Positions 5,926-24,214 of a stretch of 32,000 nt of DNA are shown piece by piece. This stretch comes from an uncultured archaeon. Lineage in GTDB: Archaea; Micrarchaeota; Micrarchaeia; Micrarchaeales; CABMGC01. The DNA lies in contig OY969902.1 of the NCBI GenBank assembly GCA_963704435.1, positions 480,001-512,000 on the forward strand. Reading direction: 5' to 3'. The first letter of the stretch is position 1. Every line of letters starts with the position of its first letter. The notes beneath the pieces are model-generated. The model was given only the letters and a program-made list of their open reading frames with translations. It searched no databases and was not told the DNA's origin. A program made the translations under genes and the position numbers.

Positions 5926-6423
5926 TTGCAGTATGCTGAGTTCGTCAAGGTCGAGAAGATACGTGGGATATTCGACAAGATAGCCTACGCGTCGTTGGCC
6001 CTGGACTTTGGCATAGCGATACTAACCCTGGTCTCGCTCAACACCTCCTTGCAATTCGGCAACATCCAGTTCACGCTGAACATGCTGCTTTCTGTGGAAG
6101 TGGTTGTAGTCGCTGTGCTGATGACTGCGATGCTGCTCCTGCACCACTACCAGAAGATACTCTTCAACCTCGCGGAATTCAGCAGGTCGATAAAAGGCGG
6201 CCCGCACGCAAAGATGGTGCACGTATGGCACAGGAAGCTCGCCATCGCCAAAATTAACTATGTGATGCTTGGCAGCCGGCACAAGAAGGGCCGGTCCGCG
6301 TTGGAGAGCGCTGAGGCCAGGCTCGGCAGGGCGCTGGCGGGCAACCAGCGCAAAGCGGGCAGGCCTGCGTGGCAGAAGTGGCTTGAGGGCGCCTTCGGAG
6401 TTCGACTTGCGCCAGCTCGGTGA
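5926..6423 (+). CDS. Hypothetical small membrane protein (two predicted TM helices, basic C-terminal tail)
   Basis: Hydrophobic stretches IAYASLALDFGIAILTLVSL and LLSVEVVVVAVLMTAMLLL. TATA-like CCTATATAAAGG lies about 35-45 nt upstream of the TTG start. No family recognised. Confidence 0.4.
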   Translation: MQYAEFVKVEKIRGIFDKIAYASLALDFGIAILTLVSLNTSLQFGNIQFTLNMLLSVEVVVVAVLMTAMLLLHHYQKILFNLAEFSRSIKGGPHAKMVHVWHRKLAIAKINYVMLGSRHKKGRSALESAEARLGRALAGNQRKAGRPAWQKWLEGAFGVRLAPAR

Positions 6424-6444
6424 ATTGCGATGCTTAAGTGCATC

Positions 6445-6453
6445 TTTTAAATA
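6445..6453 (+). promoter_or_regulatory. Putative TATA box for the DUF373 gene
   Basis: TTTTAAATA is centred about 26 nt upstream of the ATG at 6475 (leaderless). Confidence 0.45.
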
Positions 6454-6474
6454 CCCTTATTCCGAAGCAATATC

Positions 6475-7722
6475 ATGCCAAAGGGTAAGCTCAAGGCCGA
6501 GAAGAGCGAGAGGCTGCTCATACTCGTCGTGGACGTCGACAACGACCTCTACAGGAAGACGAGGATAGGCGGGCCGCTCATCGGCAGGGTGCAGAACCTC
6601 AACGGCGCGACTCAGCTGTCGCTGGCCGACCCCGAGGACACCGACGCTAACACGATGTTCCAGGCGGTCAAGATCTACGACGAGCTGAAGGACGAGGGAT
6701 ACTCGGTCAACATCGCGACGATAACCGGGGCCGAGAGCGAGGGCTATACCGCAGACAGGGAGATAGCCGCACAGCTCGACAAGGTGCTCGCGCAGGCCAA
6801 GGCCGACGCCTGCGTATTCGTAACCGACGGCGCGAGCGACGAGCGCTCGCTTCCGCTGATAGAGTCCAGGATAAAGATAAACAGCGTGAAGAGCATAACG
6901 GTCAAGCAGAGCAAGGCGCTGGAGAACACCTACTTCACGATTTTGGAGAAGCTCAAGGAGCCCCACTACGCCAGGATCGTCTTCGGCATACCCGCGATAC
7001 TGGCGCTGCTGTTCGCGCTAAGCTACGCTGCTGGCCTGGGCTGGCAGGTGCCGATAGCCATAATAGGCCTCTACCTGTTCGTCAAGGGATTCGGCCTCGA
7101 GGATACGCTCCTCGGGTCGTTCAAGGGATTCGGGTTCAGCATAGACCGCATGAGCTTCGTCTTCTACCTGACTTCGCTGGTGTTCCTCGTGGCAGGGATA
7201 TTCGTCGGGGCTAGCGACTACGTCGTGCAGCTGGCATCCACGGGCAACGCGGCGCTCGCGCTCGTGTACGGGATTGAGGGGCTGATGCTGCTTCTTCCGA
7301 TAATAATGATCCTGTTCCTCATCGGCAGGATAATAGACACAAGGTCGAGCAGGTACGTCTTCAGGAACTTCAGGTATGGGGTGTACGTCGGCTCGTCCAT
7401 CATCATATGGGTGCTGCTGTACTCCTTCACCGCGTGGTTCCTCGGACAGCTCTACTTCGGCCAGTTCCTGCTGTTCACGATCTGCGCGATAGCCATAGGG
7501 ATAGCGATATCCACGGTAACGGGCGCGCTGCGCACGCGGGTGCTCAGGACCAAGAGGCTGAAGAACAAGCTCGTGGTCAACGAGCTCGGGACGATGATAG
7601 GGAAGGTCGCGGGAATTGACCTGAAGAGGGGCAGCCTCATAATCAGCACAAGCTTCGGGAACCCGGTCAGGTACAGCGTCGACAGGATAGTCGAGATCGC
7701 CAACAAGATAGTCATAAAGTAA
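6475..7722 (+). CDS. DUF373-family archaeal integral membrane protein
   Basis: The N-terminal soluble domain LLILVVDVDNDLYRKTRIGGPLIGR...LSLADPEDTDANTMFQAVKIYDEL...VTDGASDE matches my recollection of DUF373/COG2237. It is followed by about 7 hydrophobic helices. Confidence 0.65.
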   Translation: MPKGKLKAEKSERLLILVVDVDNDLYRKTRIGGPLIGRVQNLNGATQLSLADPEDTDANTMFQAVKIYDELKDEGYSVNIATITGAESEGYTADREIAAQLDKVLAQAKADACVFVTDGASDERSLPLIESRIKINSVKSITVKQSKALENTYFTILEKLKEPHYARIVFGIPAILALLFALSYAAGLGWQVPIAIIGLYLFVKGFGLEDTLLGSFKGFGFSIDRMSFVFYLTSLVFLVAGIFVGASDYVVQLASTGNAALALVYGIEGLMLLLPIIMILFLIGRIIDTRSSRYVFRNFRYGVYVGSSIIIWVLLYSFTAWFLGQLYFGQFLLFTICAIAIGIAISTVTGALRTRVLRTKRLKNKLVVNELGTMIGKVAGIDLKRGSLIISTSFGNPVRYSVDRIVEIANKIVIK

Positions 7723-7767
7723 CGGATTTCCCGCGGCGTCCCGCTGACGGATCGGCGACCTAAAAGA

Positions 7768-18244: not shown

Positions 18245-20395
18245 ATGAGAGCGCAATCCGCCATAGAATTTATGGCCACGTATTCCTGGGCCCTCATAGT
18301 CATTGCGGTATTCATTGCGGTTGTGGGGGTGCTGATCCTTTCGCCCACGAAAGGCACGGCCACGCTGTCACCATCATCCTGCTACCTGACTCCTTCGCTG
18401 CCCTGCTACCAGTCAGTGCTGCTGACCAATTCGAGTGGGTCGCAGTTCATAGCGCTCTTCCAGAACAACATGGGCGTTAGCATGTACTTTCCTGCCAATG
18501 CCATATCCCTGCACCCGTCCTACTCGTCAAGCACGGCCTATTCCGGGTCGTGCCTGCCCCAGACCGCGCCTCCTGGCGCAACAGTGATATGCAACGTCAG
18601 CATTGCGACCTACAGCCCCGCGGTCGGAACGCAGCTCTACCCGACTTTCACGCTGAGCTACCAGATATGCCCTTCCTGCGCCACCGCGGGCGCGCAGAGT
18701 TATAACACGAGCGGCACCTCCACGCTTACCGCGTCCTCCTTCAGCAGCGTCCTCTACAGCGTACAGCTGCTCACGAGCACAGGGACCGGGAACATAGTGG
18801 TCGGCGGCGTGAAGTACCCGAGCGGCGCGAACGTAATCTTCCTGGCGGGGGTCAATTATCCCATATATGCGATACCACCAAGCGGCATCGTCAATTTCGG
18901 GGGTTGGTTGAGCTCGAACTTGGTCGTCGGGAGCCCCATGCAGCAGTCCACCACCGCGCAGGGCGCCATAAACCCTGATCCGGCGGCGTGCCTCCGGGCG
19001 GCCTTTAACTCCCTTTTCTACTCGCTTTCGATGTCGGTTAGTCCGAGTGGGGGAGGCACGGTCACACCGCTCGGAGGCTCTTACTCAATGGGAACAGTAG
19101 TGCCGATATACGCGACACCGAGCATCAACTATGCGTTCTCGAGCTGGAATGGAGTAGGGACTGGCAGCTACACCGGCTCAGCGAGTTCCGCGAGCGTGAC
19201 AATGAACAGTGCCATAACTGAGACTGCCAACTTCAACCCGATGCTTACTGTAATCAACAGCGGCTGCACTTCCGTATCCGGCTCCGGTACATACAACTAT
19301 GGTTCATCCGCCCAGTTCTCCGCAGTGGTGCCAACAGGCGCCATCCTAGGATGGACAGGCTCCGGAACGGGTTACTACTCTGGATCGAATAATCCCGGAT
19401 CTGTGACAATGTACAATCCGATTACGGAAACCGCAACGTGTAGTGGTGCCTACGTCCCGATAACCCTGACGAATTCCGCGGGTTCTGCAACGGCATCATC
19501 TTTCCCGCAGATGATTACGGTCAATTCTAACACATACTCCTCGTATGAAAGCTCTGGCTTGCAGAACATAGAATTCACCACGGGCGCTGCAGGAACAGGT
19601 CTGGTACTGTACGCTTGGTGCGAGAGTGGGTGCACAAGCACCAGCACGTCCACTGTCTGGTGGGTCGAGCTAGTCAGGTCCATATCCGGCAGCGGGGGCA
19701 CGCAAATGGTGTACATGAACTTCGTGCCGAGCAGCATGATGACGGGCACTACCGGATTCACGGGCGAGGCGCCGCAGCTATACGGAGGAAGTTACGCGCA
19801 GACGAGCTACGCCCAGTATGACAACGGAGCGGAGATATTCAACTATTATGACAATTTCTTGGGCGCGACGGTCGGGAGCCAGTACACGCAAGTCCTAGGA
19901 GCGACTATGTCAATCTCTCAGAGCAATGGACTGACGCTCTCTTGTGGGTCAGGGGATGGGGGAATAATATTGAACAACGGCTTTGTAGCAGGAACGGAAA
20001 TATTTGATGCCGATATTACTTCACTGTCCAGCAGCTATCCGGCACTGGCGCTGCTAACTGGCAACACTGCCTCGTCAGGAGGATACTGGTTTAGCTATGG
20101 CGATGGCATCGTAGAAGCCTATATGGCCTCAGGGGTGGCACAGGCGACACCAACTCCAAATCTAGCAACTGGAATAGAGGGTGGCGTATGGCTCACCTCT
20201 TCTTCGCAGACCTGGTATAATAATTATGTTCCGACTTCCGGGACGGTCAGCTATTATTCCATCGGATCGACTACATATGCTGCATTAGGCTCCTGGTACA
20301 AAACAGGCGGAACTTCAATAGAGCAGTGGATCAGACTTCGCGCCTACCCGCCAAGCGGTGCCATGCCGACGGCGAGCTTTGGTAGCTTGGCATGA
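18245..20395 (+). CDS. Large surface protein with class III (type IV pilin-like) signal peptide, three B-repeat-like modules and a C-terminal DUF2341/LamG-like region
   Basis: The N-terminus MRA|QSAIEFMATYSWALIVIAVFIAVVGVLIL matches the archaeal class III signal pattern (basic residues, A/G-Q cleavage site, Glu at +5, hydrophobic helix). Repeats of ~70 aa end in ..W.G.GTG.Y.GS....SVTM...ITETA.. (nt ~18752-19441). The C-terminal half is Ser/Thr/Gly-rich and ends ..WIRLRAYPPSG... Confidence 0.65.
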   Translation: MRAQSAIEFMATYSWALIVIAVFIAVVGVLILSPTKGTATLSPSSCYLTPSLPCYQSVLLTNSSGSQFIALFQNNMGVSMYFPANAISLHPSYSSSTAYSGSCLPQTAPPGATVICNVSIATYSPAVGTQLYPTFTLSYQICPSCATAGAQSYNTSGTSTLTASSFSSVLYSVQLLTSTGTGNIVVGGVKYPSGANVIFLAGVNYPIYAIPPSGIVNFGGWLSSNLVVGSPMQQSTTAQGAINPDPAACLRAAFNSLFYSLSMSVSPSGGGTVTPLGGSYSMGTVVPIYATPSINYAFSSWNGVGTGSYTGSASSASVTMNSAITETANFNPMLTVINSGCTSVSGSGTYNYGSSAQFSAVVPTGAILGWTGSGTGYYSGSNNPGSVTMYNPITETATCSGAYVPITLTNSAGSATASSFPQMITVNSNTYSSYESSGLQNIEFTTGAAGTGLVLYAWCESGCTSTSTSTVWWVELVRSISGSGGTQMVYMNFVPSSMMTGTTGFTGEAPQLYGGSYAQTSYAQYDNGAEIFNYYDNFLGATVGSQYTQVLGATMSISQSNGLTLSCGSGDGGIILNNGFVAGTEIFDADITSLSSSYPALALLTGNTASSGGYWFSYGDGIVEAYMASGVAQATPTPNLATGIEGGVWLTSSSQTWYNNYVPTSGTVSYYSIGSTTYAALGSWYKTGGTSIEQWIRLRAYPPSGAMPTASFGSLA

Positions 20396-20502
20396 AAAGC
20401 GGCGTTCCATATTTAATTTATGTGCTGGAGTACCCCTATGCTGTTAATTCAGTTAACCTCAGGCAGATTATTCGTTAAGTGTGTGTGCGGATCCGACTAC
20501 CG

Positions 20503-20566
20503 CTAATTGTACACCGACTTGTACTCGTTCCCGCTGTCGTCGTGGATGTCGATGCACTCGCCCTCG
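20503..20566 (-). repeat. Direct repeat copy A: orphan duplicate of the last 20 codons plus stop codon (plus the third base of the preceding codon) of the ferredoxin gene (gene fragment)
   Basis: 60/64 nt are identical to 21975-22038 (hand alignment). The minus strand reads ..EGECIDIHDDSGNEYKSVYN* versus the intact gene's ..EGECIVIHDDSGNEYKSVYK*. It lies 8 nt beyond the abiEi stop. Confidence 0.85.
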
Positions 20567-20573
20567 ATCGACT

Positions 20574-21203
20574 TCAGTAGGGACTCTCAAGCCTCTTCAG
20601 ATGAACCATCGGCTTGTACTTCTCGACAAAGCCCTTGACATCAACCCTTGTGCGCTCGTCATACCTGCCAAGGTAGCCTCCAAGCCTGCGCAAATCGATT
20701 GCGGAGAGGATGCCGCTGTAGCTCTGGACCGAAAGCCTCACGTTATAGTAAAAGAGGTCTATCAATGTCTTCTCGGGATCGGATACTGGCACAGAGAATT
20801 TCCCGTATCTGACCGTGCCAAACCCGAAGAAGTACTTGGCGGGCACGTGGTGAAGGAATATGACGTCATCCGCATCACCGAAGACCGTCGTTCTTGATGA
20901 CCTGACTCTCTTCATGGTCATCACATCCGGCCTCGAATGCTGCGTCCACAGGCCGCGCATCGTCAGCGCGGAGAGGAGGCCGTAGTAGAAGGGCGCGTAC
21001 GCGAAGCCTGCTACGGCATCGTCCTTTGTAGCCGAATAAACTCCCTTTTTTATGGAGTATATTCTTCCGCTGGTTTTTAGATAGGACAGAACTCTTGCGA
21101 TATCCGGCTTCTGCCCGGCACCTCGCAGGTACAGTTCTACGTCCCTGTACGTAAACGTCGGGTAGGAGGAGAACTTCTCAAGTATGAGCTTACCCGGCTT
21201 CAT
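20574..21203 (-). CDS. AbiEi-like antitoxin / COG5340-type transcriptional regulator
   Basis: 209 aa. N-terminal wHTH-like region (..FTYRDVELYL...ARVLSYLKTSGRIYSIKKGVY..). It overlaps the upstream DUF1814 nucleotidyltransferase gene by 14 nt, which is the typical partner arrangement. Confidence 0.6.
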   Translation of the reverse strand: MKPGKLILEKFSSYPTFTYRDVELYLRGAGQKPDIARVLSYLKTSGRIYSIKKGVYSATKDDAVAGFAYAPFYYGLLSALTMRGLWTQHSRPDVMTMKRVRSSRTTVFGDADDVIFLHHVPAKYFFGFGTVRYGKFSVPVSDPEKTLIDLFYYNVRLSVQSYSGILSAIDLRRLGGYLGRYDERTRVDVKGFVEKYKPMVHLKRLESPY

Positions 21204-21864
21204 GCGCCCATTCCTTTATTTTCTTGACCATGAACTCGAAACTGGGGGCCGCCCCGCTCAGGATCAGGTGGTCGAGGCTGCGCACGTTGCGGGGCGGGTC
21301 CTTCTCGGCCTCCTCAATCAGGGCGGCCAGCCTTCTGGCCGTCTGAGGCTTCCTGCTGCACAGTGCGGTGAGGTGATAAATGTCATAGAAGTCCTGGACT
21401 TCGGCCTGCTTGAATCCCCCTCCGCGCCTCTTGTCTTCGCATGCCTCTATCTTCTCCTCCAAAAGTTCTTCCGGGGTCAGGGATAGCACAACCATCTTGC
21501 TCCCATCCACCCTCGTGTACTCCACAGGCGCGCCTTTCTTCGGCTTCAGGTTCAGGTCTATTTTCATCTTCGTGGTTGATTCGACAAGGAGATGCATGGT
21601 CCTGGTCTTGCCGTCATAGCCCCTTTCCTTCAGCGCAAACCCCTTATCCTTGAGGAAATCGGAAATTTCAGTGAGAAGAGGGCCTGCTTCCGTCCGACCG
21701 CCGATATAGAAATCTATGTCCCTCGAGAACCTGTTGCCTGAATAGCACCGCCATATCGCGGTCCCTCCATGAAACACGAGTTCCTTGTACTTGCCGTAGA
21801 GCAGCTCGACGAGGACGTCCTCCAGCTTTGCCTTTTCAAGTTGGTCGTCGGTCTTGAAATTCAT
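21190..21864 (-). CDS. AbiEii/AbiGii-family nucleotidyltransferase toxin (DUF1814)
   Basis: ..ELVFHGGTAIWRCYSGNRFSRDIDFY.. matches the GG(T/S)aL...RfS.DiDf NTase signature. The start is taken at MNFKTDD (21864). The track's extension to 22323 is a spurious frame across the ferredoxin gene. Confidence 0.75.
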   Translation of the reverse strand: MNFKTDDQLEKAKLEDVLVELLYGKYKELVFHGGTAIWRCYSGNRFSRDIDFYIGGRTEAGPLLTEISDFLKDKGFALKERGYDGKTRTMHLLVESTTKMKIDLNLKPKKGAPVEYTRVDGSKMVVLSLTPEELLEEKIEACEDKRRGGGFKQAEVQDFYDIYHLTALCSRKPQTARRLAALIEEAEKDPPRNVRSLDHLILSGAAPSFEFMVKKIKEWAHEAG

Positions 21865-21882
21865 GCGGGTTCCCCGAATTTG

Positions 21883-21926
21883 ATAAGTCCACTTTATTAC
21901 AGTTTTATGTAATAATATGGACTTAT
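21883..21926. promoter_or_regulatory. 44-nt near-perfect palindrome in the abiEii-abiEi promoter (candidate autoregulatory operator)
   Basis: ATAAGTCCA-CT-TTATTACA gtttta TGTAATAA-TA-TGGACTTAT: 17 of 19 arm positions are complementary. It lies 19-62 nt upstream of the toxin ATG and overlaps A/T-rich TATA-like sequence. Confidence 0.5.
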
Positions 21927-21941
21927 ATCTTAATAAACTTA

Positions 21942-21954
21942 GCGGGAAACCCGC
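21942..21954 (-). terminator. Possible terminator hairpin downstream of the ferredoxin gene
   Basis: Minus strand GCGGG-TTT-CCCGC lies 21 nt after the stop and is followed by TAAGTTTATT. Confidence 0.3.
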
Positions 21955-21974
21955 TTGACGGAACTGATTGTGCG

Positions 21975-22038
21975 CTACTTGTACACGGACTTGTACTCGT
22001 TCCCGCTGTCGTCGTGTATGACGATGCACTCGCCCTCG
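21975..22038 (-). repeat. Direct repeat copy B (functional 3' end of the ferredoxin gene)
   Basis: See copy A. The repeat starts exactly at the ferredoxin stop codon. Confidence 0.85.
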
Positions 22039-22349
22039 CACTCTATGAGGCACGCCTGGCAGAGTATGCAGGACGCTCCGTTCGTAGCGCACGACAGTCC
22101 TCCGCTGGTTCCGTCGCTCTCCTGCGCGAAGTGCCTGTGACCGTCTTCCGCATTGGACCATTTCGCGAAGTCGTCCGGGTCGATCTTCCCGGTCCACTGG
22201 TGCTCCGCCGGCGCGGTGTCCGAGTTCGCCCCGTCCGCGTTGGGGTTCTCCTTCGTGCCCCTGCCCTTCATCTCGTAGACGCCCACGGGGCAGACGTCCC
22301 TGCAGTGCTGGCATCCTGTGCACCTCTCCTTCTCGACATACACGTCCAT
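21975..22349 (-). CDS. 2x[4Fe-4S] ferredoxin-type protein with a long acidic insert between the cluster motifs
   Basis: CTGCQHCRDVCP (CxxCxxCxxxCP) at residues 10-21 and CILCQACLIEC (CxxCxxCxxxC) at residues 95-105, separated by about 70 residues. Confidence 0.75.
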   Translation of the reverse strand: MDVYVEKERCTGCQHCRDVCPVGVYEMKGRGTKENPNADGANSDTAPAEHQWTGKIDPDDFAKWSNAEDGHRHFAQESDGTSGGLSCATNGASCILCQACLIECEGECIVIHDDSGNEYKSVYK

Positions 22350-22380
22350 AGCATCAACAGGTCTATTTGCAGCGCGCTGC

Positions 22381-22390
22381 TTTTATATTT
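22381..22390 (-). promoter_or_regulatory. Putative TATA box for the ferredoxin gene
   Basis: Minus strand AAATATAAAA is centred about 36 nt upstream of the ATG at 22349. Confidence 0.4.
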
Positions 22391-22503
22391 GCGCTATTCC
22401 TGCCTTTTTGGCCGGTTGGCCGGCAGGCAGTAAAATATATATGTTTTGCCATTTATATTATACGCCAGTTCTAGACCAGGGTTAGAGCTATCTTTCTTCC
22501 TTT

Positions 22504-22737
22504 TTGGGTGTAATATTGGTTAAGCGAGAACACGAGCTCGTACCTGTACACAAGATCATGAGCGCGGACGACATCGAGGACATGCTCAAGGCGCGCGGCA
22601 TAACCGCGAACAACCTGCCCAAGATCTCCGCCAGCGACCAACAGGCGAAGAAGCTTGGCGCGAAGCCTGGCGATGTGCTTCTGATAGAGCGCAACGACGG
22701 AAAGGAGTATGATTACTACAGGCAGGTAGTTGACTGA
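22504..22737 (+). CDS. rpoH: DNA-directed RNA polymerase subunit H (Rpo5)
   Basis: ..HELVPVHKIMSADDIEDMLKARGIT..LPKISASD..AKKLGAKPGDVLLIER.. typical RpoH. TTG start at 22504 or 22516. Confidence 0.88.
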   Translation: MGVILVKREHELVPVHKIMSADDIEDMLKARGITANNLPKISASDQQAKKLGAKPGDVLLIERNDGKEYDYYRQVVD

Positions 22738-24214
22738 TTCGGGTGTTTTGATAAGGGAGAACGCATTGCTGGAAGCCTATCTGAATTCCACCTCTCTGGT
22801 GCAGCACCAGATAGACGGGTTCAACAGGTTCGTGGAGACGGACCTGCAGAAGATAATCGACCAGCAGGCGGTGATACAGCCCAGCGTCGAGGGGTTCGCC
22901 CTCAAGCTCGGCAAGGTCAGGCTCGACAAGCCCTCGATAATCGAGGCCGACAGCTCGAGGAGGAACATACTCCCCAACGAGGCCAGGCTTCGGAACCTCA
23001 CCTACGCGTCCCCGATGTTCCTCGAGTTCGTCCCTGTCATAAGGGGCATCGAGAAGGAGGCCTCTTTCGGAGAGGTGTTCGTCGGCGAGCTCCCGATCGT
23101 CGTGAGGAGCAACCTGTGCCACTTCAAGATGATGACGCGCGGCCAGCTGTCTGAGAACGGGGAGGACCCGGACGACCCCGGCGGATATTTCGTGATAAAG
23201 GGCACCGAGCGCGTCCTCATCGGCCTCGAGGACCTGGCGCAGAACAGGATAATCACCGAGAAGAGCGGAGCTGAGTCTGCCAGCAAGGTCTTCTCAACTG
23301 CCCCGGGATTCAGGGCGAGGACCGTCGTCTCGCGCTCGAAGAACGGGATTTTCCTGGTCGAGTTCCCGACGCTGCACAAGCCGGTCGACATGGTGATGCT
23401 GCTGAGGTCTCTCGGCACGACCGTGAACGACATGCTCGACTCGTCGAGCGACATACCGACGTTCAAGAACGACGTGCTGCTGAACATGGAGACCAACCCC
23501 GCGAAGGACATGGGCCCGACGGAGGCGCTGCTTGAGTTCGGCAAGCTGTCCGCACCAGGGCAGGCGAAGGAGTATCAGCAGAAGCGCGCCGAGATGCAGA
23601 TAGACACCTACCTGCTCCCGCACATAGGGACGGGCGCAGAGGACAGGAAGGAGAAGGGCAAGTTCGTGCTCCAGATGGCGAGGCACGCGAGCATAGTCGC
23701 GAACCGCCTCGCGCAGCCGGACGACAAGGACCACTACGCGAACAAGAGGGTCAAGTACTCCGGGCAGCTCATGGAGGAGCTCTTCACATACGCGTTCAGG
23801 TTCTTCGTGAAGGACGTCAAGTACCAGATAGAGCGCGCGAGCGCAAGGGGCAGGAAGCTCAGCATACCGACCATCATAAGCCCCGAGACCATAACCGAGA
23901 AGATCGCCTATGCGATGGGTACCGGTACCTGGGTCGCCGGCCAGACGGGCGTGTCGCAGGTGCTCGACAGGACCAACCTGATACACACATACTCAGACCT
24001 TAGGAGGGTGAAGTCACCTCTCACGAGGAAGCACCCGCACTTCGCGGCGAGGGAGGTCCACGGCACGCAGTGGGGCAAGATCTGCATCTCCGAGACCCCC
24101 GAAGGACTTGACGTCGGACTCACCAAGTACCTGGCGCTGATGGCGAAGATAAGCGTTGGCGCGGACGAGAAGCTCGTCGAGTCGAAGCTGCGTGACATAG
24201 GCATAACCGAATGA
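22730..24214 (+). CDS. rpoB2: DNA-directed RNA polymerase subunit B'' (Rpo2N, N-terminal part of split B)
   Basis: Conserved ..QHQIDGFNRF.., ..GYFVIKGTERVLI.., ..GKICISETPEG.. motifs. Position after rpoH. Confidence 0.95.
   Translation: MTDSGVLIRENALLEAYLNSTSLVQHQIDGFNRFVETDLQKIIDQQAVIQPSVEGFALKLGKVRLDKPSIIEADSSRRNILPNEARLRNLTYASPMFLEFVPVIRGIEKEASFGEVFVGELPIVVRSNLCHFKMMTRGQLSENGEDPDDPGGYFVIKGTERVLIGLEDLAQNRIITEKSGAESASKVFSTAPGFRARTVVSRSKNGIFLVEFPTLHKPVDMVMLLRSLGTTVNDMLDSSSDIPTFKNDVLLNMETNPAKDMGPTEALLEFGKLSAPGQAKEYQQKRAEMQIDTYLLPHIGTGAEDRKEKGKFVLQMARHASIVANRLAQPDDKDHYANKRVKYSGQLMEELFTYAFRFFVKDVKYQIERASARGRKLSIPTIISPETITEKIAYAMGTGTWVAGQTGVSQVLDRTNLIHTYSDLRRVKSPLTRKHPHFAAREVHGTQWGKICISETPEGLDVGLTKYLALMAKISVGADEKLVESKLRDIGITE

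Follow-up and report, generated by a model that had tools for sequence, protein, structure and literature searches.

A probable minimal AbiE toxin-antitoxin cassette inserted at the 3' end of a ferredoxin gene in a Micrarchaeota archaeon

We analyzed a stretch of 32,000 nucleotides (nt) from the genome of a Micrarchaeota (DPANN) archaeon, referred to below as the window, in which an AbiE toxin-antitoxin (TA) operon lies between two direct copies of the 3' end of an adjacent ferredoxin gene. The inserted unit as a whole occupies positions 20567-21972 on the minus strand and is 1406 nt long, or 1472 nt when one of the two repeats is counted with it. We consider it likely that this unit is a minimal, non-autonomous AbiE cassette bearing its own attachment (att) site, which entered the ferredoxin 3' end by conservative recombination and is held there by its TA pair. 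The unit would belong to a family of minimal cassettes present in Micrarchaeota and in other archaea, probably DPANN; the members of this family appear to carry mimics of host gene ends, and their cargo is, with good probability, AbiE or else a PDC-S01 AAA_14/DUF4143 ATPase, VapBC or MNT-HEPN.

A repeat search of the window returned a single direct-repeat family, the pair at 20501-20566 and 21973-22038, whose 66-nt copies are identical at 62 positions (94%) with a start-to-start spacing of 1472 nt. The initial annotation, made from the letters alone, had described a 64-nt repeat with 60 matches; the repeat proved to be real and to extend 2 nt further. The right, gene-proximal copy (21973-22038, minus strand; attL-like) consists of the last 20 codons of the ferredoxin gene, its TAG stop codon and 2 further nt. 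The target gene itself (21975-22349, minus strand) is intact and encodes a 124-aa 4Fe-4S ferredoxin, which matches Fer4 Pfam families and is conserved across Micrarchaeota. The left, distal copy (20501-20566, minus strand; attR-like) is a displaced, non-functional ferredoxin 3' end, past which comes the intergenic DNA that originally lay downstream. Its reading frame and stop codon are preserved (EGECIDIHDDSGNEYKSVYN and stop, as against EGECIVIHDDSGNEYKSVYK and stop at the ferredoxin end), and the encoded tails close with CIDIHDDSGNEYKSVYN in the displaced copy and with CIVIHDDSGNEYKSVYK in the ferredoxin gene. The four mismatches between the copies are two synonymous and two non-synonymous changes, just as first annotated. 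GTDB species representatives contain 223 relatives of this ferredoxin, of which the best 80, almost all labelled Micrarchaeota/Micrarchaeia and with a top identity of 91%, are covered by all orthologous-locus counts given here. The C-terminus CLIECEGECI.I.DD.G..Y.SIYK, ending at the stop codon, is strongly conserved in these 80 orthologues, and neither the V->D nor the K->N change of the displaced copy occurs in any of them (0/80).

Between the repeats, all on the minus strand, lie a 108-nt leader (21865-21972), abiEii (21190-21864), an abiEi-like gene (20574-21203) and a 7-nt spacer from the abiEi stop codon to the distal repeat (20567-20573), which forms a tight 3' boundary of the cassette. 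Nothing else was annotated there, in keeping with the earlier description of the interval as the operon and its promoter only. The two genes overlap by 14 nt and constitute a bicistronic operon. The first, abiEii, encodes a predicted nucleotidyltransferase toxin of 224 aa, which matched PF08843 with E=2.6e-16 (60.7 bits; cut-off 22.5) and PADLOC AbiEii models with E-values down to 2.8e-14. The second encodes a predicted antitoxin/regulator of 209 aa, whose residues 8-153 gave a PADLOC AbiEi match (E=5e-15); this protein fell below the Pfam thresholds and had no Pfam match, and AbiEi_4 was found in 6 of 17 homologues. A 10-aa deletion in the toxin of one related locus (L086; compared loci are numbered with the prefix L) was only apparent, since the scaffold has a run of N at that place. 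In the window, as in each of the 88 pairs that make up the family (L004, L081-L190), abiEii precedes abiEi, the reverse of canonical AbiE, in which the antitoxin gene lies upstream of the toxin gene. The unit otherwise resembles AbiE, which is said to have been described by Dy and co-workers in 2014 as a type IV TA/abortive-infection system, in combining an AbiEii nucleotidyltransferase and an AbiEi winged-helix regulator, overlapping genes, and an upstream inverted-repeat operator, predicted here from sequence.

Inverted-repeat, terminator and DNA-fold scans of the leader revealed a terminator-like hairpin directly after the ferredoxin stop codon (21941-21955) and a palindrome with 19-nt arms at 21883-21901 and 21908-21926 (DNA fold z = -6.25). 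The core of this palindrome, TATTATTACA-N6-TGTAATAA, is kept upstream of the operons in L094, L098, L171, L175, L177 and L184. AbiE is autoregulated by AbiEi acting at inverted repeats in its own promoter, and by analogy the leader palindrome is probably the AbiEi operator/promoter of the operon. No known RNA family was found in 19500-23000.

A contig of 839 kb in ENA, one of 116 kb in NCBI, two assemblies from Logan and several scaffolds from GROS21 all showed this structure with the four mismatches unchanged. An assembly artefact, through a chimeric or collapsed join, is hardly credible and was ruled out, because junctions and mismatches recur in at least five assemblies from different samples and assemblers, including the 839-kb contig. 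The initial annotation had also proposed a comparison of composition between the cassette and its flanks. The GC content of the cassette is 52.8% versus a window mean of 57.4% (2nd percentile among 1.4-kb windows), and its GC at third codon positions (GC3) is 0.69-0.72 versus 0.84-0.89 in neighbouring core genes, so a difference was borne out in these two measures but not in tetranucleotide distance, which was unremarkable (88th percentile). The compositional deviation is mild and falls short of decisive.

Comparison of the orthologous loci showed that the unit is an insertion. In most of the 80 loci, the neighbouring gene lies 2-110 nt past the ferredoxin stop codon. Its product is an Lhr-like helicase or, where the gene is convergent, a pilin-like surface protein. 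Empty sites, with a single ferredoxin tail followed by the neighbouring gene, had been named at the outset as the telling comparison, and they were found in L001, L002, L006, L007, L022, L028 and L031. Among these, L001 is the closest species-level relative, with a ferredoxin 91% identical to that of the window. In L003 and L009-L013 the site was judged unoccupied on the helicase-side context. A second copy of the tail was observed in only three of the 80 species, namely the window species, L004 and L056. The 66-nt repeat of the window (62/66) encloses abiEii-abiEi. In L004 a 93-nt repeat (91/93) encloses an abiEii-abiEi pair whose products are 35% and 33% identical to those of the window, the ferredoxins of the two species being 76% identical. 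In L056 a 38-nt repeat (36/38) encloses a single AAA_14/DUF4143 ATPase gene in the opposite orientation, and it was for this ATPase that the PADLOC candidate assignment PDC-S01 was obtained (E=7e-96). L006 and L007 are empty although their flanks are 80-85% identical in DNA to those of L004. One stretch of about 40 nt in the conserved ferredoxin tail has been struck at least three times by different cargo. The contrary case envisaged at first, in which all relatives share the duplicated fragment, was not seen, and an ancient shared duplication was ruled out, because only 3 of the 80 loci are duplicated and both cargo and repeat length differ each time. A general insertion hotspot past the ferredoxin gene was rejected as well: many relatives have one to three extra genes before the Lhr-like helicase gene (oxidoreductase, GNAT, MFS, FtsZ, DUF218), which were not counted as cassettes because they are ordinary genes without tail duplication.

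Bracketing by gene ends was not confined to the ferredoxin site. AbiEii relatives at E<=1e-20 formed 161 clusters, every one with PF08843 (161/161), and the family was represented by 80 metagenome loci. For the flank test, the 800 nt upstream of each pair were aligned to the 800 nt downstream, and a score of at least 20 was taken as a hit. Direct repeats were detected at 18 of the 57 TA loci with adequate flanks, which correspond to about 10 independent events. The inverted-orientation control yielded none (0/57; maximum score 14), and random 1.3-kb segments of the compared loci yielded two (2/172), both at one place in L038. The repeat of the window scored 54, the best background between such flanks being 9-14. 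This place in L038 (558-2418), the sole source of high scores in the random-segment control, contains a 360-nt direct repeat (94%) around 1152 nt without any open reading frame (ORF) of at least 50 aa in the scan.

The bracketing repeats, which range from 23 to 189 nt among the 57 AbiE loci, duplicate the end of whichever host gene lies next to the cassette. Three lie at transfer RNA (tRNA) 3' ends: tRNA-Ala(CGC) in L098 (33 nt) and L094 (23-28 nt), and tRNA-Leu(TAG) in L178, a complete Micrarchaeota chromosome (OY970071.1; 25/25). In L184 and L188 a tRNA-Ala-like 3' part stands directly past the antitoxin stop codon. Protein-coding targets include the last 19 codons of a 680-aa gene in L150 (60 nt), the tail of a 122-aa gene plus 45 nt in L171-174 (97 nt), and the tail of a FeS_assembly_P gene in L190, from exactly its stop codon (55 nt); the sole 5'-end case is L177, in which the 5' end and promoter of a glycosyltransferase gene are repeated (184-189 nt). 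In most cases the identity block ends 0-3 nt from the terminus of the target gene, and the cassette stands 3' relative to its target without exception. The reading of the window repeats as an att-like scar, put forward in the initial annotation, gains support from this finding of the same cassette family between other gene ends elsewhere.

The dimensions of the unit are likewise constant. In seven independent insertions of the family the unit is 1373-1624 nt long, with a leader of 66-137 nt in most of them, and the far repeat begins 0-7 nt past the antitoxin stop codon or overlaps it in L004, L094, L098, L150, L177 and L190. The tRNA-Ala cassettes form a clade at 69-83% identity, and the nearest relatives of the window TA pair (64-69%) occupy three other targets; judged from these identities, target preference appears to follow cassette lineage only loosely. 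No motif common to the different att sequences was noticed by eye, and no formal test was made. One junction does recur: the tRNA-Ala fragment CGCACCC is followed by A(A/G)ACTTTTTGAT(A/G)AAACTTTT in L094 (7326-7372) and L184 (5866-5901 and 7550-7587), and it is found across genomes beside different cargo, namely the ATPase, a GmrSD-like gene and the TA pair. This recurrent sequence may represent an att arm or a terminator that these loci have in common.

The cassettes can stand in tandem. L094 has the order fragment, TA pair, fragment, PDC-S01 ATPase and tRNA-Ala, with three identical 23-nt copies; L188 shows the same order at a tRNA-Ala-like target, and arrays were also found in L118, L123, L140 and L149. 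AAA_14/DUF4143 ATPase genes occur as single-gene cassettes in L056 (6419-7711), L094 (7382-8689), L188 (7658-8878) and L140 (2731-3996), in the last between copies of about 200 nt of an upstream gene tail. They use the same gene-end repeats, beside or instead of an AbiE cassette, and 3 of 7 ATPase copies with enough flanking sequence were bracketed. Self-comparison of all loci revealed further bracketed segments of 0.7-4 kb with direct repeats of 25-210 nt, some in three copies; these other units lie in L123 (390-6394), L140 (48-4198), L149 (3636-6130), L118 (2583-4797), L142, L146, L167, L108 and L109. Their cargo comprises a canonical-order AbiE pair, MNT-HEPN, PIN/VapBC-like pairs, Pol-beta nucleotidyltransferases, Nudix and a HAD hydrolase, and is thus mostly made up of TA/defence modules; a recombinase was found in none. 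The canonical-order AbiE pair of L140 is a bracketed cassette separate from the toxin-first pair of that locus.

The differences between repeat copies bear on how the cassettes came in. In L004 the gene-attached copy ends in AAG-TGA-AATCAT and the displaced copy in AAG-TAG-CAATCAT. TAG, the stop codon of this displaced copy, is also the one in L006, L007 and L031, the relatives with empty sites. Two substitutions and an indel separate the L004 copies in this stop region, and the other 91 nt differ at two positions. The copies of L150 end in TAG versus TAA, and in L190, where two 55-nt copies are present, the fragment differs from the gene by four synonymous and three non-synonymous changes with frame and stop codon kept. 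Because of these stop-codon and synonymous differences (L004, L150, L190), a gene-end mimic appears to have come in with the cassette, and the copies would have differed before recombination. The differences argue that the repeats of the cassettes are no target-site duplication. Both copies in the window terminate in TAG followed by CG, from which the origin of the gene-attached end is not readable; by analogy with L004, the 3' part of the gene-proximal repeat was probably supplied by the cassette. Evidence of movement came from L094 and L098: the adjacent CCA-adding enzymes share 52% identity, the TA proteins 83-86%. Strict co-inheritance of the cassette with its host is contradicted by this disparity (86% versus 52%). 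Both cassettes are at a tRNA-Ala 3' end, and the part common to the two loci is the cassette alone, with no other element genes. Judged by these comparisons, the two loci show movement between species.

Taken together, these data suggest the following course of events, in which the moving part would be a reverse-order AbiE type IV TA operon (abiEii, abiEi) together with its promoter/operator. A cassette-borne copy of the ferredoxin end, presumably on a circular intermediate, would recombine with the chromosomal copy in a conservative, reciprocal, Campbell-type event. The product would be a gene with a restored end, then the cassette, and then the displaced original end, which would account for the two 66-nt repeats. 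Cassettes would move between species into the same site and could stack in tandem. Since the cassettes encode no recombinase, recombination must act in trans; a tyrosine-type integrase of a co-resident element or virus would be the most likely agent, with host homologous recombination as the alternative. If active, the TA pair would stabilise the insertion, in that cells losing the cassette through recombination between the repeats would be poisoned. That the identity blocks stop at gene termini, that the tRNA att sites are short and that the cassettes end precisely accords with a trans-acting integrase. The diverse repeats of variable length, the lack of any recombinase and the survival of almost exclusively addictive cargo accord with host homologous recombination.

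Several results weigh against the proposed insertion of an att-bearing cassette. The statement of the initial annotation that no integrase is present held for the unit and for all ORFs scanned in the 32-kb window, in which no recombinase or integrase was found. None was found either in the Pfam-annotated flanks of 10 homologue look-ups or in a crude motif-filtered scan of ORFs flanking the bracketed cassettes. Remnants of an integrase pseudogene, which would also count against the cassette, have no room in the 108-nt and 7-nt spacers of the window. IMG/VR yielded no virus or plasmid with the att sequence when it was searched with a degenerate pattern of the ferredoxin tail, with the 3' end of tRNA-Ala and with the nucleotidyltransferase alignment. 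Neither an excised circle nor a strain-level empty site was seen for the window species, whose exact AbiEi sequence occurs in this one context only, with no second location; the copy in the window may now be fixed and immobile. Among short contigs, none had a terminal overlap marking a circular form, and L097, which looked circularly permuted, fails to close in frame. The cassettes also have many targets, and their identity blocks differ in where the inner boundary lies (38, 66 or 93 nt in the ferredoxin tail, 23-33 nt at tRNA-Ala, 184-189 nt in L177); variable blocks and many targets suit homology-driven recombination better than one dedicated site-specific enzyme.

These last points lead to a possible, though somewhat doubtful, explanation in which a small circle, with the TA pair and a fragment captured from a conserved host gene, popped into the chromosome by a RadA-dependent single crossover, with no dedicated recombinase. 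Only addictive cargo would then persist, as other integrants would pop out again. The bracketing sequences are indeed diverse, from 23 to about 200 nt and, in L177, from the 5' end of a gene; the cargo is almost always a TA/defence module, a recombinase was found nowhere in the scanned flanks, and it is the sequences of highest conservation (tRNA ends, the ferredoxin tail) that are targeted recurrently. However, the identity blocks of 23-33 nt in L094, L098 and L178 are short for homologous recombination, terminus-bounded blocks and precise cassette boundaries are unexpected if flanking DNA is captured at random, and the junction of CGCACCC with ARACTTTTTGAT recurs in different genomes. A second alternative places the origin of the unit in a larger integrase-bearing element or provirus that was deleted down to its addictive TA module, leaving the old attL and attR as repeats. 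TA modules are generally known to resist loss, and no integrase is left in the window; the att geometry equals that given for integrase-bearing archaeal elements in PMC6563490. We nevertheless regard such a relic as improbable, because random deletions would not repeatedly stop flush with both att copies: at least seven independent insertions have a unit of 1.37-1.62 kb, a distal repeat 0-7 nt past or overlapping the antitoxin stop codon, and a leader that is mostly 66-137 nt. The arrays, too, consist of single-gene or single-operon units with an att copy between each, and L094 and L098 share a bare cassette without other element genes.

It is still less probable that the tail was doubled in situ upon insertion, by a staggered break or by replication slippage, with no cassette-borne copy involved. 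The copies in the window differ at only 4 of 66 positions, and both non-synonymous changes are in the displaced copy and absent from the orthologues, as decay after duplication predicts. Against this stand the gene-attached TGA of L004 versus TAG in its displaced copy and in its relatives, and the excess of synonymous differences with preserved frame in L190. Duplication of variable length does not predict blocks that mostly end 0-3 nt from the gene terminus, no known transposition mechanism accounts for duplications of 23 to about 200 nt, and terminal inverted repeats are absent. A transposon or insertion sequence was ruled out, as there is neither a transposase nor a terminal inverted repeat at the ends of the unit and the duplications lack a short, fixed length.

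A more far-reaching proposal, to which we attach rather low probability, is that the att-bearing cassettes belong to an undescribed DPANN cassette system, in which promoter-bearing single-operon defence/TA units, with a gene-end mimic in place of attC, are inserted and stacked in trans at the 3' ends of tRNA and protein genes. The insertion activity need not then be a classical element integrase, and could conceivably be the PDC-S01 AAA_14/DUF4143 ATPase itself. This protein is a candidate inserter because it uses the same sites and because DUF4143 figures in a survey of the PD-(D/E)XK phosphodiesterase superfamily.

Several described systems share features with the cassettes, and non-autonomous integrative elements of the CIME kind and integron cassettes come nearest as concepts. 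The cassettes of integrons, including the TA cassettes of chromosomal integrons and those of archaeal integrons, have no recombinase of their own and form TA-rich arrays that are stabilised by TA pairs. The units described here are likewise mobile units of a single gene or operon, without a recombinase and in arrays; unlike integron cassettes, they have their own promoter, their site is a copy of a host gene end, and no IntI or attI was found in the 32-kb window. An integron attC was ruled out, since folding of the repeat regions did not surpass that of shuffled sequence (z -0.37, -0.15 and +0.38) and the repeat is ferredoxin coding sequence. The cis-mobilizable elements (CIMEs) of the ICESt1/3 system of Streptococcus thermophilus have attL and attR and no integration genes, are thought to be mobilised by a cognate integrase, and form tandem accretions. 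The present cassettes resemble them in having att sites without recombination genes, but differ in their archaeal host, far smaller size and many different att sites, and in that no cognate autonomous element appeared in the IMG/VR scans (ferredoxin tail, tRNA-Ala end, nucleotidyltransferase). The archaeal tyrosine-recombinase elements cover integrated plasmids, proviruses and cryptic integrated elements (She et al.; Krupovic et al. 2019). According to Krupovic et al. 2019 (PMC6563490), these integrate into 3'-distal parts of tRNA and protein-coding genes; their att repeats measure tens of nt, element sequence replaces the stop codon, and sites are re-used in tandem. The likeness extends to 3'-end targets, a repeat inside the target gene, a replaced gene end and tandem arrays. 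In contrast to such elements, which encode their own integrase and span several to tens of kb, the cassette is 1.4 kb long and consists of one operon with att and no integrase. The literature searched contained no account of archaeal TA cassettes that lack an integrase and lie between gene-end repeats.

The window is a housekeeping region, with the gene for ribosomal protein L11, Spt5, Trm5, rpoH-rpoB-rpoA, GrpE and ORFs resembling a ribosomal-protein operon. The ferredoxin gene adjoins rpoH in the window (21975-22737), whereas in nearly all relatives (cf. L003-L013) it follows L10 and L12, which would imply a rearrangement with a breakpoint 5' of the ferredoxin gene of the window. Convergent with the cassette is a gene at 18245-20395 for a 716-aa protein with a type IV pilin-like N-terminus and an InlB B-repeat (Flg_new_2) domain; the length of this pilin-like protein is highly variable in relatives (250-1222 aa). 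Three relatives have other arrangements at the ferredoxin gene. L079 contains two full-length ferredoxin genes in tandem (6001-7008). In L078 a TnpB (IS605-family OrfB) gene lies directly 3' of the ferredoxin gene (6350-7724), and a 24-nt palindrome spans the ferredoxin stop codon. In L057 a PIN-domain toxin gene and a small upstream partner lie just 3' of the ferredoxin gene (6594-7373) within a 57-nt repeat (91%), which is not the ferredoxin tail.

TA and defence genes are well known for their mobility, yet the movement of a bare TA pair without a mobility gene is rarely visible, and the footprints at these gene ends are unusually clean. If mobilised in trans, the cassettes would be the smallest integrative elements described for archaea, and would offer genome-reduced DPANN symbionts a route for exchanging defence genes. 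If host recombination alone suffices, addiction can fix single-crossover insertions that would otherwise be unstable. Either way, the duplication of a gene end around an operon of 1-2 kb is a searchable signature for surveys of gene flux in uncultured archaea.

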